Virus record (IMG/VR): IMGVR_UViG_3300017917_001616
Span: 10,983-74,982 of that record
Length of the DNA stretch: 64,000 nucleotides
Source: a virus
Reading direction: 5' to 3' (one strand)
Part shown: positions 4,663-24,858 of the stretch, one piece after another
Position numbering within the stretch: position 1 is the first letter of the stretch
Layout of the letters: every line of letters begins with the position of its first letter
Translations under genes and position numbers: made by a program
The notes under the pieces: generated by a model
What the model was told of the DNA's origin: nothing
Database searches by the model: none
The model's input: only the letters and a program-made list of their open reading frames with translations

Positions 4663-5268
4663 ATGATTAAAGTCCAAGGCAAACTTCCTAGAGACGTAGT
4701 AGTTGCTTGCAGCGGCGGCGTTGATAGTATGGCTATTGTTGATTTTCTAAAAAGAAATCATCGTATTACTCTACAGTTTGTGCATCATGGCACGGAAACT
4801 AGTGAACAAGCACACCAGTTTCTAGTGCAATATGCTGCAGATAATCAACTTAAACTATACACGTCACATATCAACACTGATCTTCCTAAAGGCGTAAGTC
4901 AAGAAGAACACTGGAGAAACGAACGTTATAAAATTTTTAATGCTTGGCAGAAACCGGTTATTACTTGTCATCATTTAGATGATTGTGTAGAGACTTGGAT
5001 TTGGTCAAGTATGCACGGCGAGGGTAAAGTTATTCCCTACCAAAATGAAAATGTAATTAGGCCTTTTAGACTAAACAAAAAACATGAGTTTATCAATTGG
5101 TGTAAACGAAAAAATGTAAGTTGGATTGAAGATAAATCAAATCTTGACACATCATATATTAGAAACTATATTCGTAACAATATTGTAGAACAACTGTTAG
5201 TTATTAATCCAGGCTTACATAAAGTAATCGCAAAGAAAATTGAACAAGAACACAAAGGACACATGTAA
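4663..5268 (+). CDS. tilS: tRNA(Ile)-lysidine synthetase (minimal catalytic domain)
   Basis: PP-loop SGGVDS, HHLDDxxET, IRP, EDKSN..Y.RN.IR motifs. Confidence 0.9.
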   Translation: MIKVQGKLPRDVVVACSGGVDSMAIVDFLKRNHRITLQFVHHGTETSEQAHQFLVQYAADNQLKLYTSHINTDLPKGVSQEEHWRNERYKIFNAWQKPVITCHHLDDCVETWIWSSMHGEGKVIPYQNENVIRPFRLNKKHEFINWCKRKNVSWIEDKSNLDTSYIRNYIRNNIVEQLLVINPGLHKVIAKKIEQEHKGHM

Positions 5269-8907: not shown

Positions 8908-9765
8908 ATGGGCGGTATAGCGTCCGACTTAAGGGTAAGTGCAGTAATGCACCCAAAGCAAGGTTTCCTATAAACTTGCGCTGTAGCAATACAGTCCATC
9001 TATGCAAGCCTGAACTAGAGTTGACTCGGTTATCCGAAAGCAACTCCCGTCCGTAGAAAGGCGGTAGGCAGTAAGTTAGGAATGGTGTCCGAAAGGATAG
9101 TCGCAGAGCCAGTCGGTGAGCGATAAGAGGGTTGGCGCCCAAACACCGTTCAGCCAAACTAACGAATGCTGAAAGTTAACAGGTAGCTACAGAGTCTGAG
9201 CCCGCAAGCAAAGGCATGGTAGCATCTTGAGAGTGGAAGGGTTAGGCCCCGGATACTTGAAAAGACGTTGAGTAGTCCGCAAGACGAAAGACAGTTGGTG
9301 TGTTGTATTCTGTATCTAACAAGATATGGAGCAACTGGGGCAGCACATCGAAGTAGGTTCGCAATATTGCATAACGGTAATGCAATCGTATTATCAAACG
9401 ACAGACTGTGGGTTCGATTCCCACTGTTGCACACAAAAGCGAAAGACTGTCCCGGTATACTACGAAAGGTGGTTAATGCCACACTCGAAAGAGAATGTGG
9501 TCTACAGATGCTCGCAAGGCGGACGTAGTTGTTCGGAAAGATAGCGTAACTTCTTAGCGGAAGTGAACTGCTCGCAAGGCAGGCGAAGGATAGAAGGACG
9601 AGTAGTAGTATGCGACGAGAGAAACGCCACTCTCCAAAAAAGGCACCACTGGAAGATACAGGATGACCGTAAAAGGCTCCTGTGGATAACGAGAGAACGT
9701 GGCTCGCAAGGCTAACGGTAATGCTCAAAGGCTTCCATCCTATGCTGTAATCTCAAGCTAGGCAA
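8908..9765 (+). ncRNA. GOLLD-like giant ncRNA
   Basis: ~860 nt, no credible ORF, dense GNRA-capped hairpins (gcaa, gaaa), in a phage tRNA cluster, 3' end gctgtaatctcaagc; matches my recollection of GOLLD. Confidence 0.7.
9361..9430 (+). ncRNA. tRNA-like domain embedded in the GOLLD-like RNA
   Basis: gcaata/tgttgc acceptor, D arm, 8-nt anticodon loop, gtgggttcgattcccac T arm, no CCA. Confidence 0.65.
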
Positions 9766-9769
9766 AACA

Positions 9770-9855
9770 TTACGTTTTGATGATACACATATATACTAAC
9801 AGAGGCTTAGTCCGGAGAGCGTTATGCCAAGTTTATGTGTATCTTCTAAGCGTAA
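9770..9855 (+). ncRNA. Closed-stem small RNA (family A, copy 1)
   Basis: ttacgttttgatgatacacata / tatgtgtatcttctaagcgtaa. Confidence 0.55.
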
Positions 9856-10597: not shown

Positions 10598-10987
10598 ATG
10601 AAGATATTTGAGATCACAGCAAAACTTGTAAACAAGTATTATCCAGAGCCGGATGAGACTGAAGTTGGGTCTGATGTAAAGAATGTAAGAAATGAAGTAA
10701 ATCGAGTTGTTACATTGCCAATGAATCAAATTAAGTCTAGATTCGAAGGCGACGATAAAGCAGATCCTGCGTGGACTACAGCTAGAGCAAATATCGAAAA
10801 CATTAAAAAACAAATTAAAAAAGATGTCAAACAGCTACCTCCAATAGTTGTGAGAAGGCTTCCAAGAGAAAATACGTATCAAGTAATAGATGGTCACCAT
10901 CGTTACTTTGCATTTCGTGAAATGAATATTAAACTTATACCAGCTATAATACTAAATGCTGGACAAGTTACTGGTGACAAATATTAA
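10598..10987 (+). CDS. ParB/Srx N-terminal domain protein
   Basis: PPIVV...YQVIDGHHRYFA; TATAAATA late promoter upstream. Confidence 0.8.
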   Translation: MKIFEITAKLVNKYYPEPDETEVGSDVKNVRNEVNRVVTLPMNQIKSRFEGDDKADPAWTTARANIENIKKQIKKDVKQLPPIVVRRLPRENTYQVIDGHHRYFAFREMNIKLIPAIILNAGQVTGDKY

Positions 10988-13108: not shown

Positions 13109-13735
13109 ATGGTTAAAATGACTTGTTACTCGGATGTTCCTGGATGGGGAGATTTTCCGATAGTATACCGTGATTTAGTTGCGTCACTGCCTGCTAACGC
13201 TAGTATACTTGAATTAGGTGTTGGGTTTGGACGTGGAACATGGACAATGCTCGACGCAATGACGGATACCATGTCACTTTATATAATTGATAGTTTTAAT
13301 GCAGTAGACACAGTAGATTTGTGGGAAAATTATTTCGAAACAGGTAGTCCGGTAACACTAAGTCGGGAAAATATATTAGAGTATGGAAATATGACTAAAA
13401 TATATAACCACTACGAAATCTTTTTACATAATATATGTCAACACACACGTTACTCTCAAATACAAGCAATACATGCTATATCAAGCGACGAGTATATTGC
13501 TTCGAATTTTAAGAATGATTTTGATCTTGTATTCCTAGACGGCGAGCATTCATATGAAGCTGTAAAGCAAGAACTTGAATACTTTAAAAATTCTGGCATA
13601 ATTTCTGGACATGACTACAATATTGAAACTTGGCCGGGTGTAATACAAGCGGTAACCGAATTTCTTGATAGTAACCCCGATCGGTATTTAAAAGTATACG
13701 AAGAAAATGAAGTATTTGTGATTTGCCGTCGTTAA
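13109..13735 (+). CDS. Class I SAM-dependent methyltransferase (Methyltransf_24-like)
   Basis: ILELGVGFGRGT, FDLVFLDGEHSYE, GHDY. Confidence 0.85.
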   Translation: MVKMTCYSDVPGWGDFPIVYRDLVASLPANASILELGVGFGRGTWTMLDAMTDTMSLYIIDSFNAVDTVDLWENYFETGSPVTLSRENILEYGNMTKIYNHYEIFLHNICQHTRYSQIQAIHAISSDEYIASNFKNDFDLVFLDGEHSYEAVKQELEYFKNSGIISGHDYNIETWPGVIQAVTEFLDSNPDRYLKVYEENEVFVICRR

Positions 13736-13773
13736 ACTGAATAATAAATAGTTTTAATTACGGAGATTACAAT

Positions 13774-14637
13774 ATGGTCTATCATTTAGAAAATTCTATC
13801 TGGAATAAAAAAAATCATCCAGAAGGACTTTCGCTGCCTATGATCGAAGATTTACCTAGGGTCAACTTATTATTAAAGCCTGCAATAGAAAGAAAGGCAA
13901 AAGACAAGATTGTTATTGACCTTGGGTGCGGCAGCGGATTATTGGGACTATATGCTTTTGACTACGGTGCAAAATTTGTTTATTTTGTTGAACAAGACCC
14001 TTTCATGATTGATACATTACGTAACAGTTTGCCTAAAATACTAGATCCTAACAAATTTAAAATTATTCATAAGTATGCACAAGACTTAACTTATGATGAT
14101 TTTGATTGTGGCGAACCAGAGTTATGTGTTAGTGAGTTACAAGGGCCGCAACTGTATGACGAAGGTTGCTATCAATGCACAATTCCTATACGAAGCATGT
14201 ATCAAAACTTAGTATTCATACCAGAAGTGTATCGACTCGATATCATTGAATCAGATGTAGACTATAGCAAATGGCCGTGGCCTCAAAGCGAAACACGTTT
14301 GTTAGAGCATTACAAATATATGTATTCTAAAATAGGTTGGACAAATGGGTTTATCGGATTAGACCGTCCTATCGAATTAGTAAATCCGAAAAAAATAGGT
14401 GAGCTTGTATACGACACAAGATCTGGTATTTTTAAAAACACATTTTCTACTGTTATTACTGCGCCAGAAGGCAAAATGATTAACATGTTTGGTTTTTGCC
14501 AATCTGACGAATTAGAAAATGTTACAACTAAATTTGGTTGGTATGTTTATCCCAGACAGGAACAGATGTTATTGACAGTTCATAATCCCAATACAGCTAT
14601 TGATTCTAGGATTATGTTTTCTTTAGCATTACAATGA
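13774..14637 (+). CDS. SAM-dependent methyltransferase (PrmA/PRMT-like motif I)
   Basis: VIDLGCGSGLLG..A...GAKFVYFVE, VSE. Confidence 0.75.
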   Translation: MVYHLENSIWNKKNHPEGLSLPMIEDLPRVNLLLKPAIERKAKDKIVIDLGCGSGLLGLYAFDYGAKFVYFVEQDPFMIDTLRNSLPKILDPNKFKIIHKYAQDLTYDDFDCGEPELCVSELQGPQLYDEGCYQCTIPIRSMYQNLVFIPEVYRLDIIESDVDYSKWPWPQSETRLLEHYKYMYSKIGWTNGFIGLDRPIELVNPKKIGELVYDTRSGIFKNTFSTVITAPEGKMINMFGFCQSDELENVTTKFGWYVYPRQEQMLLTVHNPNTAIDSRIMFSLALQ

Positions 14638-18389: not shown

Positions 18390-18528
18390 ATGAAACGAAA
18401 ACGCCAAAAGGTTCCTAAGGAAAGGAACGTGTTTGTAGCTGCCGCATTGTTTCGCAAGGCAGGCGCACACACTAAAACAAACAAAGCGAAACGAAAACGT
18501 GAAAAACAAGACTTCACAGAAAACATTA
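18390..18528 (+). CDS. Small basic protein whose frame runs into tRNA-Lys (formal stop at 18716)
   Basis: MKRKRQKVPKERNVFVAAALFRKAGAHTKTNKAKRKREKQ. Confidence 0.5.
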
Positions 18529-18615
18529 GGACCGGTGCCCGAGAGGCCGATGGGGACAGACTTTTAATCTGTAGCAGCAATGCCAACGAAGGTTCGAATC
18601 CTTCCCGGTTCACCA
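18529..18615 (+). tRNA. tRNA with Lys(TTT) anticodon and long variable arm
   Basis: acaga-cttttaa-tctgt, 87 nt, CCA. Confidence 0.8.
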
Positions 18616-18925
18616 TTACTTTGATGATACGTAAAATATGGGTTCGATTCCCGGCACTATACCTCGCAAGGGTGAAGGGCTCCTTTAAGGTAGGATTGAA
18701 CGTATCTTCTAAGTAATGATTATTTTGACGATAACAGAATAGCAGATCCTGGGTAATTAAGTTTGCTTTAGAGTGGGATCAGGGATATGTTGCGAGCCCT
18801 GCTGTTATCTTCTAAGTAATGACATTGTTTTGATGATATATTGATACCGAAGGGCACGACGGTTTGGTTAGTAACCCTGATGCCGGGTGAACGGTTCGAA
18901 TCCAACAATATATCTTCTAAGTAAT
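18616..18925 (+). repeat. Tandem array of three family-A closed-stem RNAs
   Basis: tttga(t/c)gata ... tatcttctaagtaatg three times, period ~103-105 nt, unrelated interiors. Confidence 0.75.
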
Positions 18926-19000
18926 GCGCCGGTAGCTCAGAGGCAGAGCAGGGGGCTCTTAATCCCAAGGTCGAGGTTTCGAAATCCTCCCGGCACACCA
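18926..19000 (+). tRNA. tRNA-Lys(CTT)
   Basis: ctcttaa loop, CCA. Confidence 0.85.
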
Positions 19001-19008
19001 AAGAATAT

Positions 19009-19086
19009 TGTCCTAGAGTCGTCCAGGTGACGGCACCTGGCTGTTAACCAGGATGGAGAGAGGTTCGAGTCCTCTTAGGACAGCCA
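19009..19086 (+). tRNA. tRNA-Asn(GTT)
   Basis: cctgg-ctgttaa-ccagg, G73, CCA. Confidence 0.85.
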
Positions 19087-19288
19087 AAATAGAATAGTGA
19101 ACTCGAGAGGATAAAAACTAAAACACTGCAAGCTGATCACTTGCTGATTTAAAAAAACAATACTAAATCAGTTTTAGTTTGACTTTCGATGTAGCTTAGT
19201 AGGGCGGCCACTAAAACTCCGGAGAGATGGCTCATTACCATCCAGTGCCCTACGACCAATTACTGTGTTATAAATAAAATTAAAAGGT

Positions 19289-22427: not shown

Positions 22428-22949
22428 ATGAAAGAAGCACGTAAATACCTAGTATTTTTGGATGTTGATGGCGTGTTTACTTCGTCACGTGTTCATTATG
22501 GTCACAATGCTAGCTACGATATGTGGCACAGGTTTGATCCAGTTGCAGTAGACTTTATGAATAAGATTCATGATCGGTATCCAGTTGAGTTTGTTCTAAT
22601 GTCAACTTGGAAAAACTATATCGATGTAAAAAGTCATATGATCCAGCATTGGGTTCGTGCTGCATTTGGTAATAGCGGTTTCAGGGGGCAACTTGCAACT
22701 CCGTGGAAAACAGATCCTGACGAACTTTGGATCAACAGAAAAAACTTTGACCGAGGCGACGAAGTAAAAGAGTATTTAGATGTATACGGACAGGATGTCA
22801 ACGATTTCATCTTATTTGACGACAATGCTTATAACTTCGATAAAGCACTAGGAGTTAAGCGGCTAGTAAGAACAGATCATGAAAATGGACTGTTATACAA
22901 GCATATGCTACATGCCCAGAGTATCATGGGACAATGGCATGAACGATAG
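22428..22949 (+). CDS. HAD-family (Swiss-army-knife RNA repair type) domain protein
   Basis: FLDVDGV, STW, RGDEV, FILFDD motifs. Confidence 0.7.
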   Translation: MKEARKYLVFLDVDGVFTSSRVHYGHNASYDMWHRFDPVAVDFMNKIHDRYPVEFVLMSTWKNYIDVKSHMIQHWVRAAFGNSGFRGQLATPWKTDPDELWINRKNFDRGDEVKEYLDVYGQDVNDFILFDDNAYNFDKALGVKRLVRTDHENGLLYKHMLHAQSIMGQWHER

Positions 22950-23246: not shown

Positions 23247-23813
23247 ATGACAAAAGATATTTGGGTTATTAGTGATACGCACTTTAACCACGCAAACATT
23301 CTAAAATTTACAGATAGTAACACAGGCGAATTGATTCGTGGCGCTAAATTTCAGTCAGTGACTGAAATGGACGAATATATGGTAGACCGTTGGAACAGCA
23401 CAGTAAAGCCCGGGGATAAGGTTTATCATCTAGGCGATGTTATGTTCGGAGATAAAGAGTATTTCCAAAAGCTATGGCCTAAGCTACACGGACAAAAGCG
23501 TCTTATTGTGGGAAACCATGACGACATTAAGTATCTATCTAGTGGCGGGTTCTTTGCAAAGGTTCATATGTGGCGTATGATGACTGAGTTTGGCTTGCTG
23601 CTAACACATGTTCCTGTTCATCCTAGCAACTTGCGAGTATACGCTGTAGAAGGCGAATACAACGAGGGTGATGTAGGAACAGTTCAAAAGACGTTTCTTA
23701 ATGTTCATGGACATATTCACCAAAATCCAAGCCCAGAAGGGCCATATCGCAATATGAGCGTAGAGGCCATTGATTATACTCCTGTTAACATCGAAGAACT
23801 GAGGATTAAGTAA
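23247..23813 (+). CDS. Calcineurin-like metallophosphoesterase
   Basis: SDTHF, HLGD, GNHD, HGHIH. Confidence 0.9.
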   Translation: MTKDIWVISDTHFNHANILKFTDSNTGELIRGAKFQSVTEMDEYMVDRWNSTVKPGDKVYHLGDVMFGDKEYFQKLWPKLHGQKRLIVGNHDDIKYLSSGGFFAKVHMWRMMTEFGLLLTHVPVHPSNLRVYAVEGEYNEGDVGTVQKTFLNVHGHIHQNPSPEGPYRNMSVEAIDYTPVNIEELRIK

Positions 23814-23971: not shown

Positions 23972-24208
23972 ATGCGTTGGAAATCATATCAAGGGCCCAA
24001 GTCGGGTGAGAAGCGTGTAGTAGAATGTTTTGCAATTCTTCCAACAAGACTAGATGATGGTTATACAGTATGGTTAGAAAAATACTATGCTGTAGAAACA
24101 TGGGATGATGGCACAACTAGCACTGGGTTCGGTTATTGGAAAACAAATAGCACTTCGTCAGAACATCCACACAAACCTGACACTGGAAGTAATTATCGGA
24201 GAACATAA
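23972..24208 (+). CDS. Hypothetical protein
   Basis: FAILP...VWLEKY small phage family. Confidence 0.6.
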   Translation: MRWKSYQGPKSGEKRVVECFAILPTRLDDGYTVWLEKYYAVETWDDGTTSTGFGYWKTNSTSSEHPHKPDTGSNYRRT

Positions 24209-24858
24209 TGACACTAACAAGACTAATCGGCGACATTCACGGAATGGTAAATGATTATAAGGCATACTCCATTGGAGATTTCGCCGGGCCTACTATCCAA
24301 ATAGGAGACTTTGGCATTGGCTTTGGTCAGAGCGATTACTGGCATGAAAGCGTTAATGAGTTTCACACTATTGGTGGGCATCGTTTTATTCGTGGCAATC
24401 ACGATAATCCTGCAACTTGTAAGACAATGTCTGGATATATCCCAGATGGTCTAGTAGAAAACGATGTGATGTTTATCGGCGGCGCATGGAGTATCGATAA
24501 CCCAAATGCTCCTCCGGGGTGGTATCGCAGAACTGCTAATTATGACTGGTGGGACGATGAAGAATGTTCGGATAAACAATTTCGACATTTCCTTGAAATT
24601 TATGCTACTGTAAAGCCTCGAGTTATGATTACACATGACTGTCCTGCTAAAGTTTCTTACCCTATGTTTTGGGGAAGCGGCTTTATCAAAGGACCGGTGT
24701 ATCCTAACCGCACTAGCGCATGGTTTGATAAGTTTATCGATGTTCACGAGCCTGAAGAATGGTATTTTGGACATTGGCACAAAACCATGGCACACAAACA
24801 CGGTCGCACAATGTTTCAGTGTATTGGCGAACTAGATTATATGGATGTAGAGCTATGA
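24208..24858 (+). CDS. Metallophosphoesterase
   Basis: GDIHG, GDFG, GNHD, THDCP, FGHWH. Confidence 0.9.
   Translation: MTLTRLIGDIHGMVNDYKAYSIGDFAGPTIQIGDFGIGFGQSDYWHESVNEFHTIGGHRFIRGNHDNPATCKTMSGYIPDGLVENDVMFIGGAWSIDNPNAPPGWYRRTANYDWWDDEECSDKQFRHFLEIYATVKPRVMITHDCPAKVSYPMFWGSGFIKGPVYPNRTSAWFDKFIDVHEPEEWYFGHWHKTMAHKHGRTMFQCIGELDYMDVEL

Follow-up and report, generated by a model that had tools for sequence, protein, structure and literature searches.

The stretch of DNA analysed here (the window) covers 64,000 nucleotides (nt) of the virus record IMGVR_UViG_3300017917_001616, positions 10,983 to 74,982 of a record of 75 kilobases (kb) that is 19% complete, and it carries 41 transfer RNA (tRNA) genes together with one GOLLD RNA. 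Amongst these tRNAs lies the element that concerns us: a tandem array of three cassettes, head-to-tail and 103-105 nt each, which spans 18616-18925 on the + strand between tRNA-Lys(UUU) and tRNA-Lys(CUU). This layout, with the shared starts and ends of the three units, had been noticed in a first reading of the letters alone (the original prediction), and it is what we find, coordinates included. The CCA end of tRNA-Lys(UUU) (18529-18615, + strand, 87 nt; called by ARAGORN and, at 55 bits, by the Rfam tRNA model) adjoins the first cassette, U1 (18616-18718), which is followed by U2 (18719-18821) and U3 (18823-18925), with a gap of only 1 nt between tandem units; G1 of tRNA-Lys(CUU) (18926-19000, + strand; ARAGORN and Rfam) comes directly after U3 and is the G found in column 146 of our alignment of this unit. 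Every unit starts with UUUGA(U/C)GAUA and ends with UAUCUUCUAAGUAAUG. The 16-mer tatcttctaagtaatg occurs exactly three times in the window (at 18703, 18806 and 18911) and, when up to three mismatches are allowed, seven times, against 1.0 expected and with none of 100 shuffles reaching seven. A dispersed fourth copy, which the original prediction had also placed after the GOLLD RNA, is indeed present: U4 (9769-9855, + strand, with a 53-nt interior) begins 10 nt past the GOLLD match (9295-9759, + strand; Rfam RF02032, 195.4 bits against a gathering score of 150, over the full model length). Just upstream of the tandem array, a 46-codon open reading frame (ORF) rich in Lys and Arg (18390-18527, + strand) has no stop codon ahead of tRNA-Lys(UUU).

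Two neighbours of the cassettes are unusual in their own right. The tRNA-Lys(UUU) of the window owes its 87 nt to a 12-nt insertion in the variable region, its homologues in related contigs measuring 74-78 nt. The GOLLD RNA contains an embedded tRNA-like element (9360-9432), read by ARAGORN with a 2-nt anticodon, and U4 lies directly downstream of this RNA.

The two ends of each cassette pair into a closing helix of ~21 base pairs (bp), which we call the handle, formed by 5' UUACUUUGAUGAUA and UAUCUUCUAAGUAA 3' and holding two U.U mismatches; the interior that it encloses we call the cargo. From the outside inward, the handle consists of an outer stem, a U.U mismatch, two pairs (G-C and A-U), the second U.U mismatch, the pairing of GAUA with UAUC, and finally 4-6 pairs that are specific to each unit. 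It begins at or beside the CCA end of the upstream tRNA; in U1, its 5' strand lies at ~18616-18632 and its 3' strand at ~18700-18717. Single-sequence folds of all four copies give this closing helix with two 1x1 mismatches, followed by unit-specific pairs, as had been predicted, with a folding energy of -33.2 kcal/mol (z -3.2) for U1 and -28 kcal/mol (z -4.4) for U4. The copies differ in detail: the inner mismatch of U2 is C.U instead of U.U, whilst in U4 the outer stem is altered on both strands (ttacgtttt / aagcgtaa), with the core, UUUGAUGAUA/UAUCUUCUAA, and both U.U mismatches retained.

The cassette is not a peculiarity of this one virus. A pattern scan of viral contigs gave 41 loci; in ~27 of them the helix extends on both sides, and the remainder are chance matches. 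A second scan, of metagenome contigs, returned 86 stretches and used the 3' strand only, which leaves the 5' strand unbiased. Pooled, the two scans gave 73 distinct units (70 of them single units), whose cargos form 41 clusters when grouped at 70% identity; single-unit classes make up 38 of these. The original prediction had proposed a covariance model, the conservation of the stem in homologues and a look at co-occurring genes as checks, and each was informative: a model (R1) built from a 29-unit alignment finds further units in complete genomes, the stem is conserved across homologues, and a single widespread gene co-occurs, namely the 46-codon basic ORF. R1 scores 60.2 bits for U1, 59.8 bits for U2, 72.1 bits for U3 and 55.8 bits for U4.

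Four of the cassette-bearing records are complete or nearly so (at least 92%), with lengths of 195, 201, 342 and 518 kb, and each holds one to three units, every one of them inside a tRNA array. Judging from the names of the contigs, freshwater as well as marine (TARA) samples are represented. The DnaB-type helicase shares 54% identity with its counterpart in the Pseudomonas jumbo phage PA5oct and 48% with the one in the Agrobacterium phage Atu_ph07; the carriers are uncultured aquatic jumbo phages, distant relatives of PA5oct. No cassette and no clear homologue of the upstream peptide was found in PA5oct, Atu_ph07, Phosso or XaC1, a blastn search of cultured phages matched tRNAs only, and 185,579 species-representative genomes contained no bona fide copy, their two 19-mer matches being chance matches without a 5' strand. 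The family is also absent from the catalogues we searched: a cmscan of 18500-19100 against Rfam 15, with E up to 10, returned the flanking tRNAs and chance fragments only, the whole window at the gathering threshold gave tRNAs and GOLLD only, and a permissive Rfam scan of 20 loci was dominated by tRNAs and gave nothing on the identity of the cargo. Likewise, the handle strings matched no relevant paper in a full-text search. The suggestion that these cassettes form an undescribed family thus stands, with the addition that the family is widespread in related phages.

What, then, is being conserved? In the 29-unit alignment, the 19 proposed handle pairs are paired in 97.8% of cases and 11 of them vary on both sides; none of 500 shuffles matches the observed values, and slid registers of the same alignment pair at just 30-50%. 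The handle covaries at its edges. On the tRNA strand, the R1 scores exceed those of the opposite strand by ~40 bits (for U1, the opposite strand reaches 30.8 bits), and the handle pairs contain 48 G.U cells against 12 A.C cells, both of which argue for an RNA made from the + strand and against an inverted repeat that acts as DNA. Towards its centre, however, the handle is held far more tightly than its edges: when only units found by their 3' strand are counted, identity over the ten positions of the 5' core is 96.7%, whilst the adjacent tRNA-Lys(UUU) has, in the same comparison, a mean identity of 74.9% and a minimum of 60%. The 10-bp core is constrained in sequence, beyond pairing.

The two mismatches are part of this constraint. 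In 70 units, the inner position is U.U in 64, C.U in five and A-U in one, and the outer position is U.U in 66, C.U in two and A-U in two. Rare divergent handles, found as model matches in complete genomes, replace the G-C pair between the mismatches with A-U or U-A, with both strands changed, and sometimes close or shift the outer mismatch, but the inner mismatch is retained. Non-pairing itself is therefore maintained, which is the strongest argument that the handle is specifically read: since the core and its pyrimidine.U mismatches are held more tightly than pairing requires, we posit that the handle acts as a sequence-specific recognition element. The original prediction had spoken of a constant protein-binding or processing stem; the constancy stands, whilst the binding of a protein is a putative role of the stem. 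Two familiar motifs were considered for this helix and ruled out. A K-turn (C/D-box-like) reading of UGAUGA is at odds with strands of equal length and an inner stem that stays in Watson-Crick register, and a hammerhead-like reading of CUGAUGA lacks both a GAAA core and an Rfam match.

The main rival to a specific recognition of the handle is that it serves as a stem for processing or stability only, with host RNase III or a similar double-strand nuclease excising the cargo RNAs from the tRNA precursor, in the way that rRNAs are freed from the stems of theirs, and separating tandem units. The mismatched ~21-bp duplex would then be a substrate, or a deliberately poor one, and no dedicated binding protein would be needed. 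Such a stem suits the geometry: the length and position of the helix fit, its flanks pair around a stable RNA, and about two helical turns, made up of 19 Watson-Crick or G.U pairs and the two mismatches, close every unit. Moreover, tandem units have no intervening tRNA to supply RNase P or 3'-end cuts, and cassettes persist in a genome that lacks the upstream peptide (G003). It does not suit the near-invariant core. Known RNase III substrates tolerate much sequence change, yet here the core keeps 97% identity between phages in which that of tRNA-Lys is down to 75%. Neither an RNase III gene nor an RtcB gene was found in the four complete cassette-bearing genomes, although for RNase III the host enzyme would suffice. 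We regard a pure processing stem as unlikely, but as a serious contender all the same.

As for the position of the cassettes, the CCA of tRNA-Lys(UUU) lies immediately upstream of 47 of the 73 units; five follow tRNA-Phe, -Leu, -Arg or -Gly, four follow another unit, and 17 have no full tRNA upstream according to ARAGORN, the last group including units behind remnants of tRNA 3' halves, a conserved element of ~115 nt, and GOLLD. A further unit, in the complete genome G003, comes after tRNA-Asp. Downstream, the same 73 units are followed by tRNA-Lys(CUU) in 16 cases, tRNA-Ile in 11 and another unit in nine, with no neighbour called in 28. No terminator-like site was found between units and tRNAs. 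A solitary unit therefore begins and ends just where its neighbours are cut during their maturation. A pattern search with the 3' end of tRNA-Lys, aimed at empty sites, returned unrelated tRNAs among the matches listed, none with a handle after it.

Several loci show what else can stand in these arrays. In L063, L090, L101 and L025, the cassette is preceded by the 3' half of a tRNA only (T-arm, 3' acceptor strand and CCA). L039:481-596 is an example of the conserved non-coding element of ~115 nt (closed by CCCACCGU...ACGGUGGG), which lies just upstream of the cassette where other loci have a tRNA; it occurs also in L095, L104, L114, L115, L132 and L145, and is probably another structured RNA of these arrays. 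Two related jumbo-phage contigs carry a tRNA with a CUA anticodon (L009:990-1064 and L010:1007-1081), labelled 'Pyl' by ARAGORN, which is a candidate amber suppressor. Finally, the metagenome contig L092 (5573 nt) joins the block of peptide, tRNA-Lys and cassette to two tRNAs and a full set of bacterial 23S and 5S ribosomal RNA (rRNA) genes; the likeliest explanation is that the assembly fused two sequences at a conserved tRNA, a genuine rRNA operon in a phage being less likely.

The peptide encoded by the upstream ORF adds a protein to this picture. When the 32 ORFs of the window were compared by tblastn with 62 cassette loci, the ORF at 18390-18527 was the sole widespread co-occurring gene, present at 41 of the 62; the runner-up, a HAD-domain RNA-repair protein, reached seven, and no recombinase gene co-occurred. 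Conversely, a search with the peptide alone led to 24 loci; of these, 18 have an intact cassette directly behind the tRNA-Lys, in four the cassette is decayed and in two it is missing. The ORF, the tRNA-Lys and the cassette form a block that stays intact while the order of the remaining tRNAs is shuffled. Read on in frame, 32 of 33 distinct homologues, which are 44-46 codons long, first meet a stop codon within the tRNA-Lys gene, an arrangement seen in the window, L015, L034, L039 and others; a transcript cut there by RNase P would therefore become a non-stop mRNA. Non-stop messages produced by processing are the known expression logic of ArfA, but homology to ArfA is not supported, a six-frame search of five genomes with PF03889 having found nothing at the ORF. 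The predicted product is very basic (isoelectric point ~11, 32% Lys plus Arg), with R12, N13, G25, H27, K29, K32 and R35 invariant, and an AlphaFold2 model gives two helices at a mean predicted local distance difference test score of 76, the C-terminal helix with high confidence. The peptide had no match in Pfam scans with E up to 10, its profile met a single chance match in the PDB (E 0.18), and in the ESM Atlas it falls into viral hypothetical clusters only.

Other protein genes scattered through the tRNA region, at 4663-5268, 13109-14637, 22428-22949, 23247-23813 and 24208-24858, point to tRNA modification and RNA repair. Their products are a PP-loop (TilS-like) protein, a HAD domain of the type found in 'Swiss Army Knife' RNA-repair proteins, two methyltransferases and two metallophosphoesterases.

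So close a tie to tRNA-Lys(UUU) raises the possibility that the cassette acts in cis, as a structured 3' trailer controlling the maturation, stability or timing of that tRNA, with the Lys-rich ORF possibly joining in as a translated leader. The CCA of tRNA-Lys(UUU) adjoins 47 of 73 units, the block is kept together amid shuffled tRNAs, and ten of the 46 codons of the ORF are Lys codons, all of which would be expected of such a device. Nonetheless, units are found as well behind tRNA-Phe, -Leu, -Arg, -Gly and -Asp, behind other units, GOLLD and the non-tRNA element; a trailer would not need arrays of up to four units or a selected diversity of cargo structures; and what is conserved across homologues of the ORF is its amino-acid sequence, beyond mere codon content. 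A role in cis is, in our view, improbable.

It is in the cargo that the cassettes diverge. Arrays contain one to four units, cargos range from 53 to ~150 nt, and their median pairwise identity, 53%, is that of noise. Within a class, by contrast, the cargo is conserved, and the best-sampled diverged class shows six compensatory pairs against one broken pair; the cargo is structured and under selection. Two of the units in the window have orthologues elsewhere: the cargo of U2 (class 10) is 92% identical, with a compensatory change, to that of L010 in the 518-kb phage, and U3 is 95% identical to L014. The notion of a constant, sequence-conserved stem bearing variable payloads is thereby borne out, the payloads being structured and sometimes tRNA-like.

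This likeness to tRNA takes several forms. A T-arm-like hairpin (5-bp stem, 7-nt loop) occurs in 13 of 38 cargo classes, against 2.3 expected, and usually lies immediately 5' of the 3' closing strand, in the acceptor position, where its stacking on the handle would resemble that of a T-arm on an acceptor stem. In the window, both of the predicted T-loop motifs are present: cggttcgaatcc in U3, where the T-arm-like element adjoins the 3' closing strand, and gggttcgattccc in U1, which is an exception to the rule in that its hairpin (18640-18652) lies near the 5' side of the cargo. At its default setting, ARAGORN called none of 29 units a tRNA, and no RF00005 match falls inside the units of 18500-19100; at an 80% threshold, it called six of the 29 as degenerate tRNAs, most of them having aberrant anticodon loops, where shuffled sequences gave 0.2. 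For U3, whose cargo is a degenerate tRNA, this setting yields a tRNA-like fold with a 4-nt anticodon. Judging by these sequence features, about a third of the cargo classes are tRNA-derived, and such cargos, without a normal anticodon loop or CCA end, could not be charged; the remaining cargos have other multi-helix folds.

The cargo can also be replaced wholesale. Contigs L034 and L043 are 99% identical across tRNA-Lys(UUU), both handle strands and tRNA-Lys(CUU), whilst the 50-nt cargos between are unrelated, their identity being at noise level. One cargo class can, furthermore, occur behind differing upstream elements. Decay is seen as well: in L329, L331 and L332 (~1707-1800) and in L334 (~1707-1760), a deletion has taken the 3' handle whilst the 5' handle and the cargo remain, and in L334 it extends into tRNA-Lys(CUU).

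Precise exchange at the handles, degenerate tRNAs amongst the cargos and decayed copies are also what one would expect if the element worked as DNA, the handles being inverted repeats for recombination or transposition (MITE-like, that is, resembling miniature inverted-repeat transposable elements, or attC-like, or a 'linker') and the cargos decaying tRNA pseudogenes devoid of RNA function. Yet a DNA feature should not show the strand asymmetry described above (48 G.U against 12 A.C, and ~40 bits more on the + strand), nor both differences between the arms fixed as U.U or C.U without drift, nor compensatory changes in the helices of the cargo, and no recombinase gene accompanies it. We rate this explanation slightly lower still than action in cis.

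Long terminal stems with T-arm-containing domains recall the Y RNAs of bacteria (YrlA-like), in which a Ro60-binding stem bears a tRNA-like module, and phage-encoded YrlA-like RNAs are known (PMC4201824). The original prediction had drawn this comparison, which holds as an analogy but fails as membership: PF05731 (TROVE/Ro60), which as a control gave matches in Deinococcus and Bacteroides, had none in G000 or in the four cassette-bearing genomes that are at least 92% complete; Rfam, Y_RNA included, gave no match with E up to 10; and the handle core, UUUGAUGAUA/UAUCUUCUAA, bears out the predicted absence of a GGUCCGA/UUGACC-type Ro site. In most tRNA-like cargos the T-arm adjoins the 3' closing strand, whereas in YrlA the stem replaces the anticodon arm of the module (PMC4201824), and the majority of cargos are not tRNA-like at all. 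That the cassettes are Y RNAs proper is, accordingly, very unlikely.

Least credible of all is a CRISPR-like mini-array of guide RNAs, in which the junction of two handles would be the palindromic repeat and the cargo the spacer: tandem units do present a ~33-nt palindromic 'repeat' (a 3' strand plus the next 5' strand) between variable segments of ~70 nt, but solitary units have half-sites only, with tRNAs directly flanking, the cargos are of uneven length, internally structured and conserved rather than uniform unstructured spacers, and antisense matches of the U1-U4 cargos in the 75-kb record are at chance level (best 15 nt with one mismatch, E 0.8), leaving the guide role that had been suggested without a target in that record. 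An array of type III toxin-antitoxin (ToxI-like) RNAs was also considered and rejected, the interiors being unrelated (median identity 53%) and the neighbouring ORFs having no nuclease match.

With these alternatives weighed, we tentatively favour, with somewhat less than even confidence, an undescribed family of phage small RNAs with a constant handle and interchangeable cargo, released by tRNA processing, the handle being a sequence-specific recognition element. The original prediction had found the array, but not its start at the CCA of tRNA-Lys(UUU), the replacement of cargo between near-identical phages, or the link to the upstream ORF. The cassettes would be transcribed on the tRNA strand within a polycistronic tRNA precursor, from which the enzymes of tRNA maturation would probably release them as they process the flanking tRNAs. 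Trimming of the 3' side of the upstream tRNA, in most cases tRNA-Lys(UUU), would define the 5' end of the cassette, whilst RNase P would define its 3' end by cutting at the next tRNA, which for U3 means the 5' end of tRNA-Lys(CUU). The reader of the handle would most likely be a protein that senses the mismatch-distorted helix, or alternatively a defined nuclease, and the handle would give a common fate to many different folded cargo domains, which phages exchange through recombination at the handles. The 46-residue, basic, two-helix peptide is a candidate partner of the handle, though not an obligatory one.

Several observations weigh against this interpretation. In G003, a complete genome of 201 kb, there are two cassettes (the handle of one being standard) and no peptide gene; the two cassette-less peptide loci are the same sequence and so amount to one homologue without a cassette; and both facts mean that the peptide cannot be the only reader of the handle. 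Two-thirds of the cargo classes are without any tRNA feature. The decayed cassettes lie in otherwise intact phages, and the element is thus dispensable in some lineages. Lastly, it could be frequent recombination between cassettes, and not a reader, that partly maintains the conservation of the handle.

What might such RNAs be for? The constant link to tRNA-Lys(UUU), a tRNA hit by defence nucleases, and the rapid turnover of cargo suggest that they may interfere with host tRNA or translation factors, or with tRNA-directed defence. There is a precedent for the battleground, as the AriB nuclease of PARIS cleaves host tRNA-Lys and phage T5 counters with a tRNA-Lys of its own (PMC11464382); this targeting is suggestive context for a decoy role, and no evidence for it. 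Going further, we could speculate that the cassettes make up a modular RNA toolkit for counter-defence or host takeover, in which the handle, recognised by some factor of the phage or of its host (the peptide being one possibility), would display fast-changing, uncharged tRNA mimics and other folds as decoys or inhibitors of tRNA-binding host enzymes, tRNA-Lys nucleases included, with new cargos gained by recombination at the handles. We consider so specific a scenario doubtful, and less probable than a pure processing stem; if true, it would be the RNA counterpart of the anti-defence cassettes made up of protein genes.

If our reading of a recognised handle on exchangeable cargo holds, the cassettes represent a new way for viruses to organise non-coding RNAs, with an invariant, mismatch-bearing adaptor helix joined to dozens of interchangeable folded domains, and these domains turn over faster than the tRNA genes beside them. 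The 10-bp core with its two pyrimidine.U mismatches is a defined element with which to look for new RNA-binding or processing activities, and the system bears on why large phages carry tRNA arrays and on how tRNA-directed immunity is countered. In practical terms, the handle could scaffold the expression of stable structured RNAs in bacteria. Even if its function were processing only, ~38 unexplored classes of structured RNA from jumbo phages would remain to be explored.

Amongst known systems, the closest in architecture are the Y RNAs (YrlA/Yrn1, bound by Ro60/Rsr), RNAs of 80-130 nt in which the two ends pair to make a conserved helix for recognition by protein, with non-canonical positions that distort it, bearing a variable module that often mimics tRNA (T-arm), and which are in some cases encoded by phages (PMC4201824). 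The cassettes differ in having neither a Ro60 gene in the four genomes nor a Ro-site sequence, and, apparently, in the placing of the stem, at the acceptor side of tRNA-like cargo and not at the anticodon side; their cargo, besides, is hypervariable and swapped, and they form tandem arrays in tRNA clusters, starting at the CCA of a tRNA.

A second likeness is to the RNase III stems of rRNA and tRNA operons, where the flanks of a stable RNA pair as a ~20-bp duplex around it in a polycistronic transcript. The flanks of the cassettes also form a duplex of ~20 bp round the enclosed RNA, but the operon stems covary freely and each enclose one fixed RNA, whereas here a near-invariant stem encloses a changing one. 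The tRNA cluster of phage T4 likewise yields stable small RNAs that are not tRNAs, 'species 1 and 2', which are co-processed with the tRNAs; compared by description only, these resemble the cassettes as small non-tRNA RNAs of a phage tRNA cluster, and we know of no handle or cassette architecture that they share. That tRNA-processing enzymes can define the ends of an adjacent non-tRNA RNA is seen with MALAT1-mascRNA and with the tRNA-microRNA units of gammaherpesvirus 68, although these are eukaryotic or viral nuclear systems without a constant closing helix and variable cargo. Finally, the arginine-rich-motif peptides of lambda N-boxB and of Rev-RRE in human immunodeficiency virus bind distorted RNA helices. 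The likeness here is a lead only, for no homology was detected and one cassette-bearing genome is without the peptide, but the parallel is a suggestive one: a short, very basic, helical peptide encoded beside a helix with conserved non-Watson-Crick positions.

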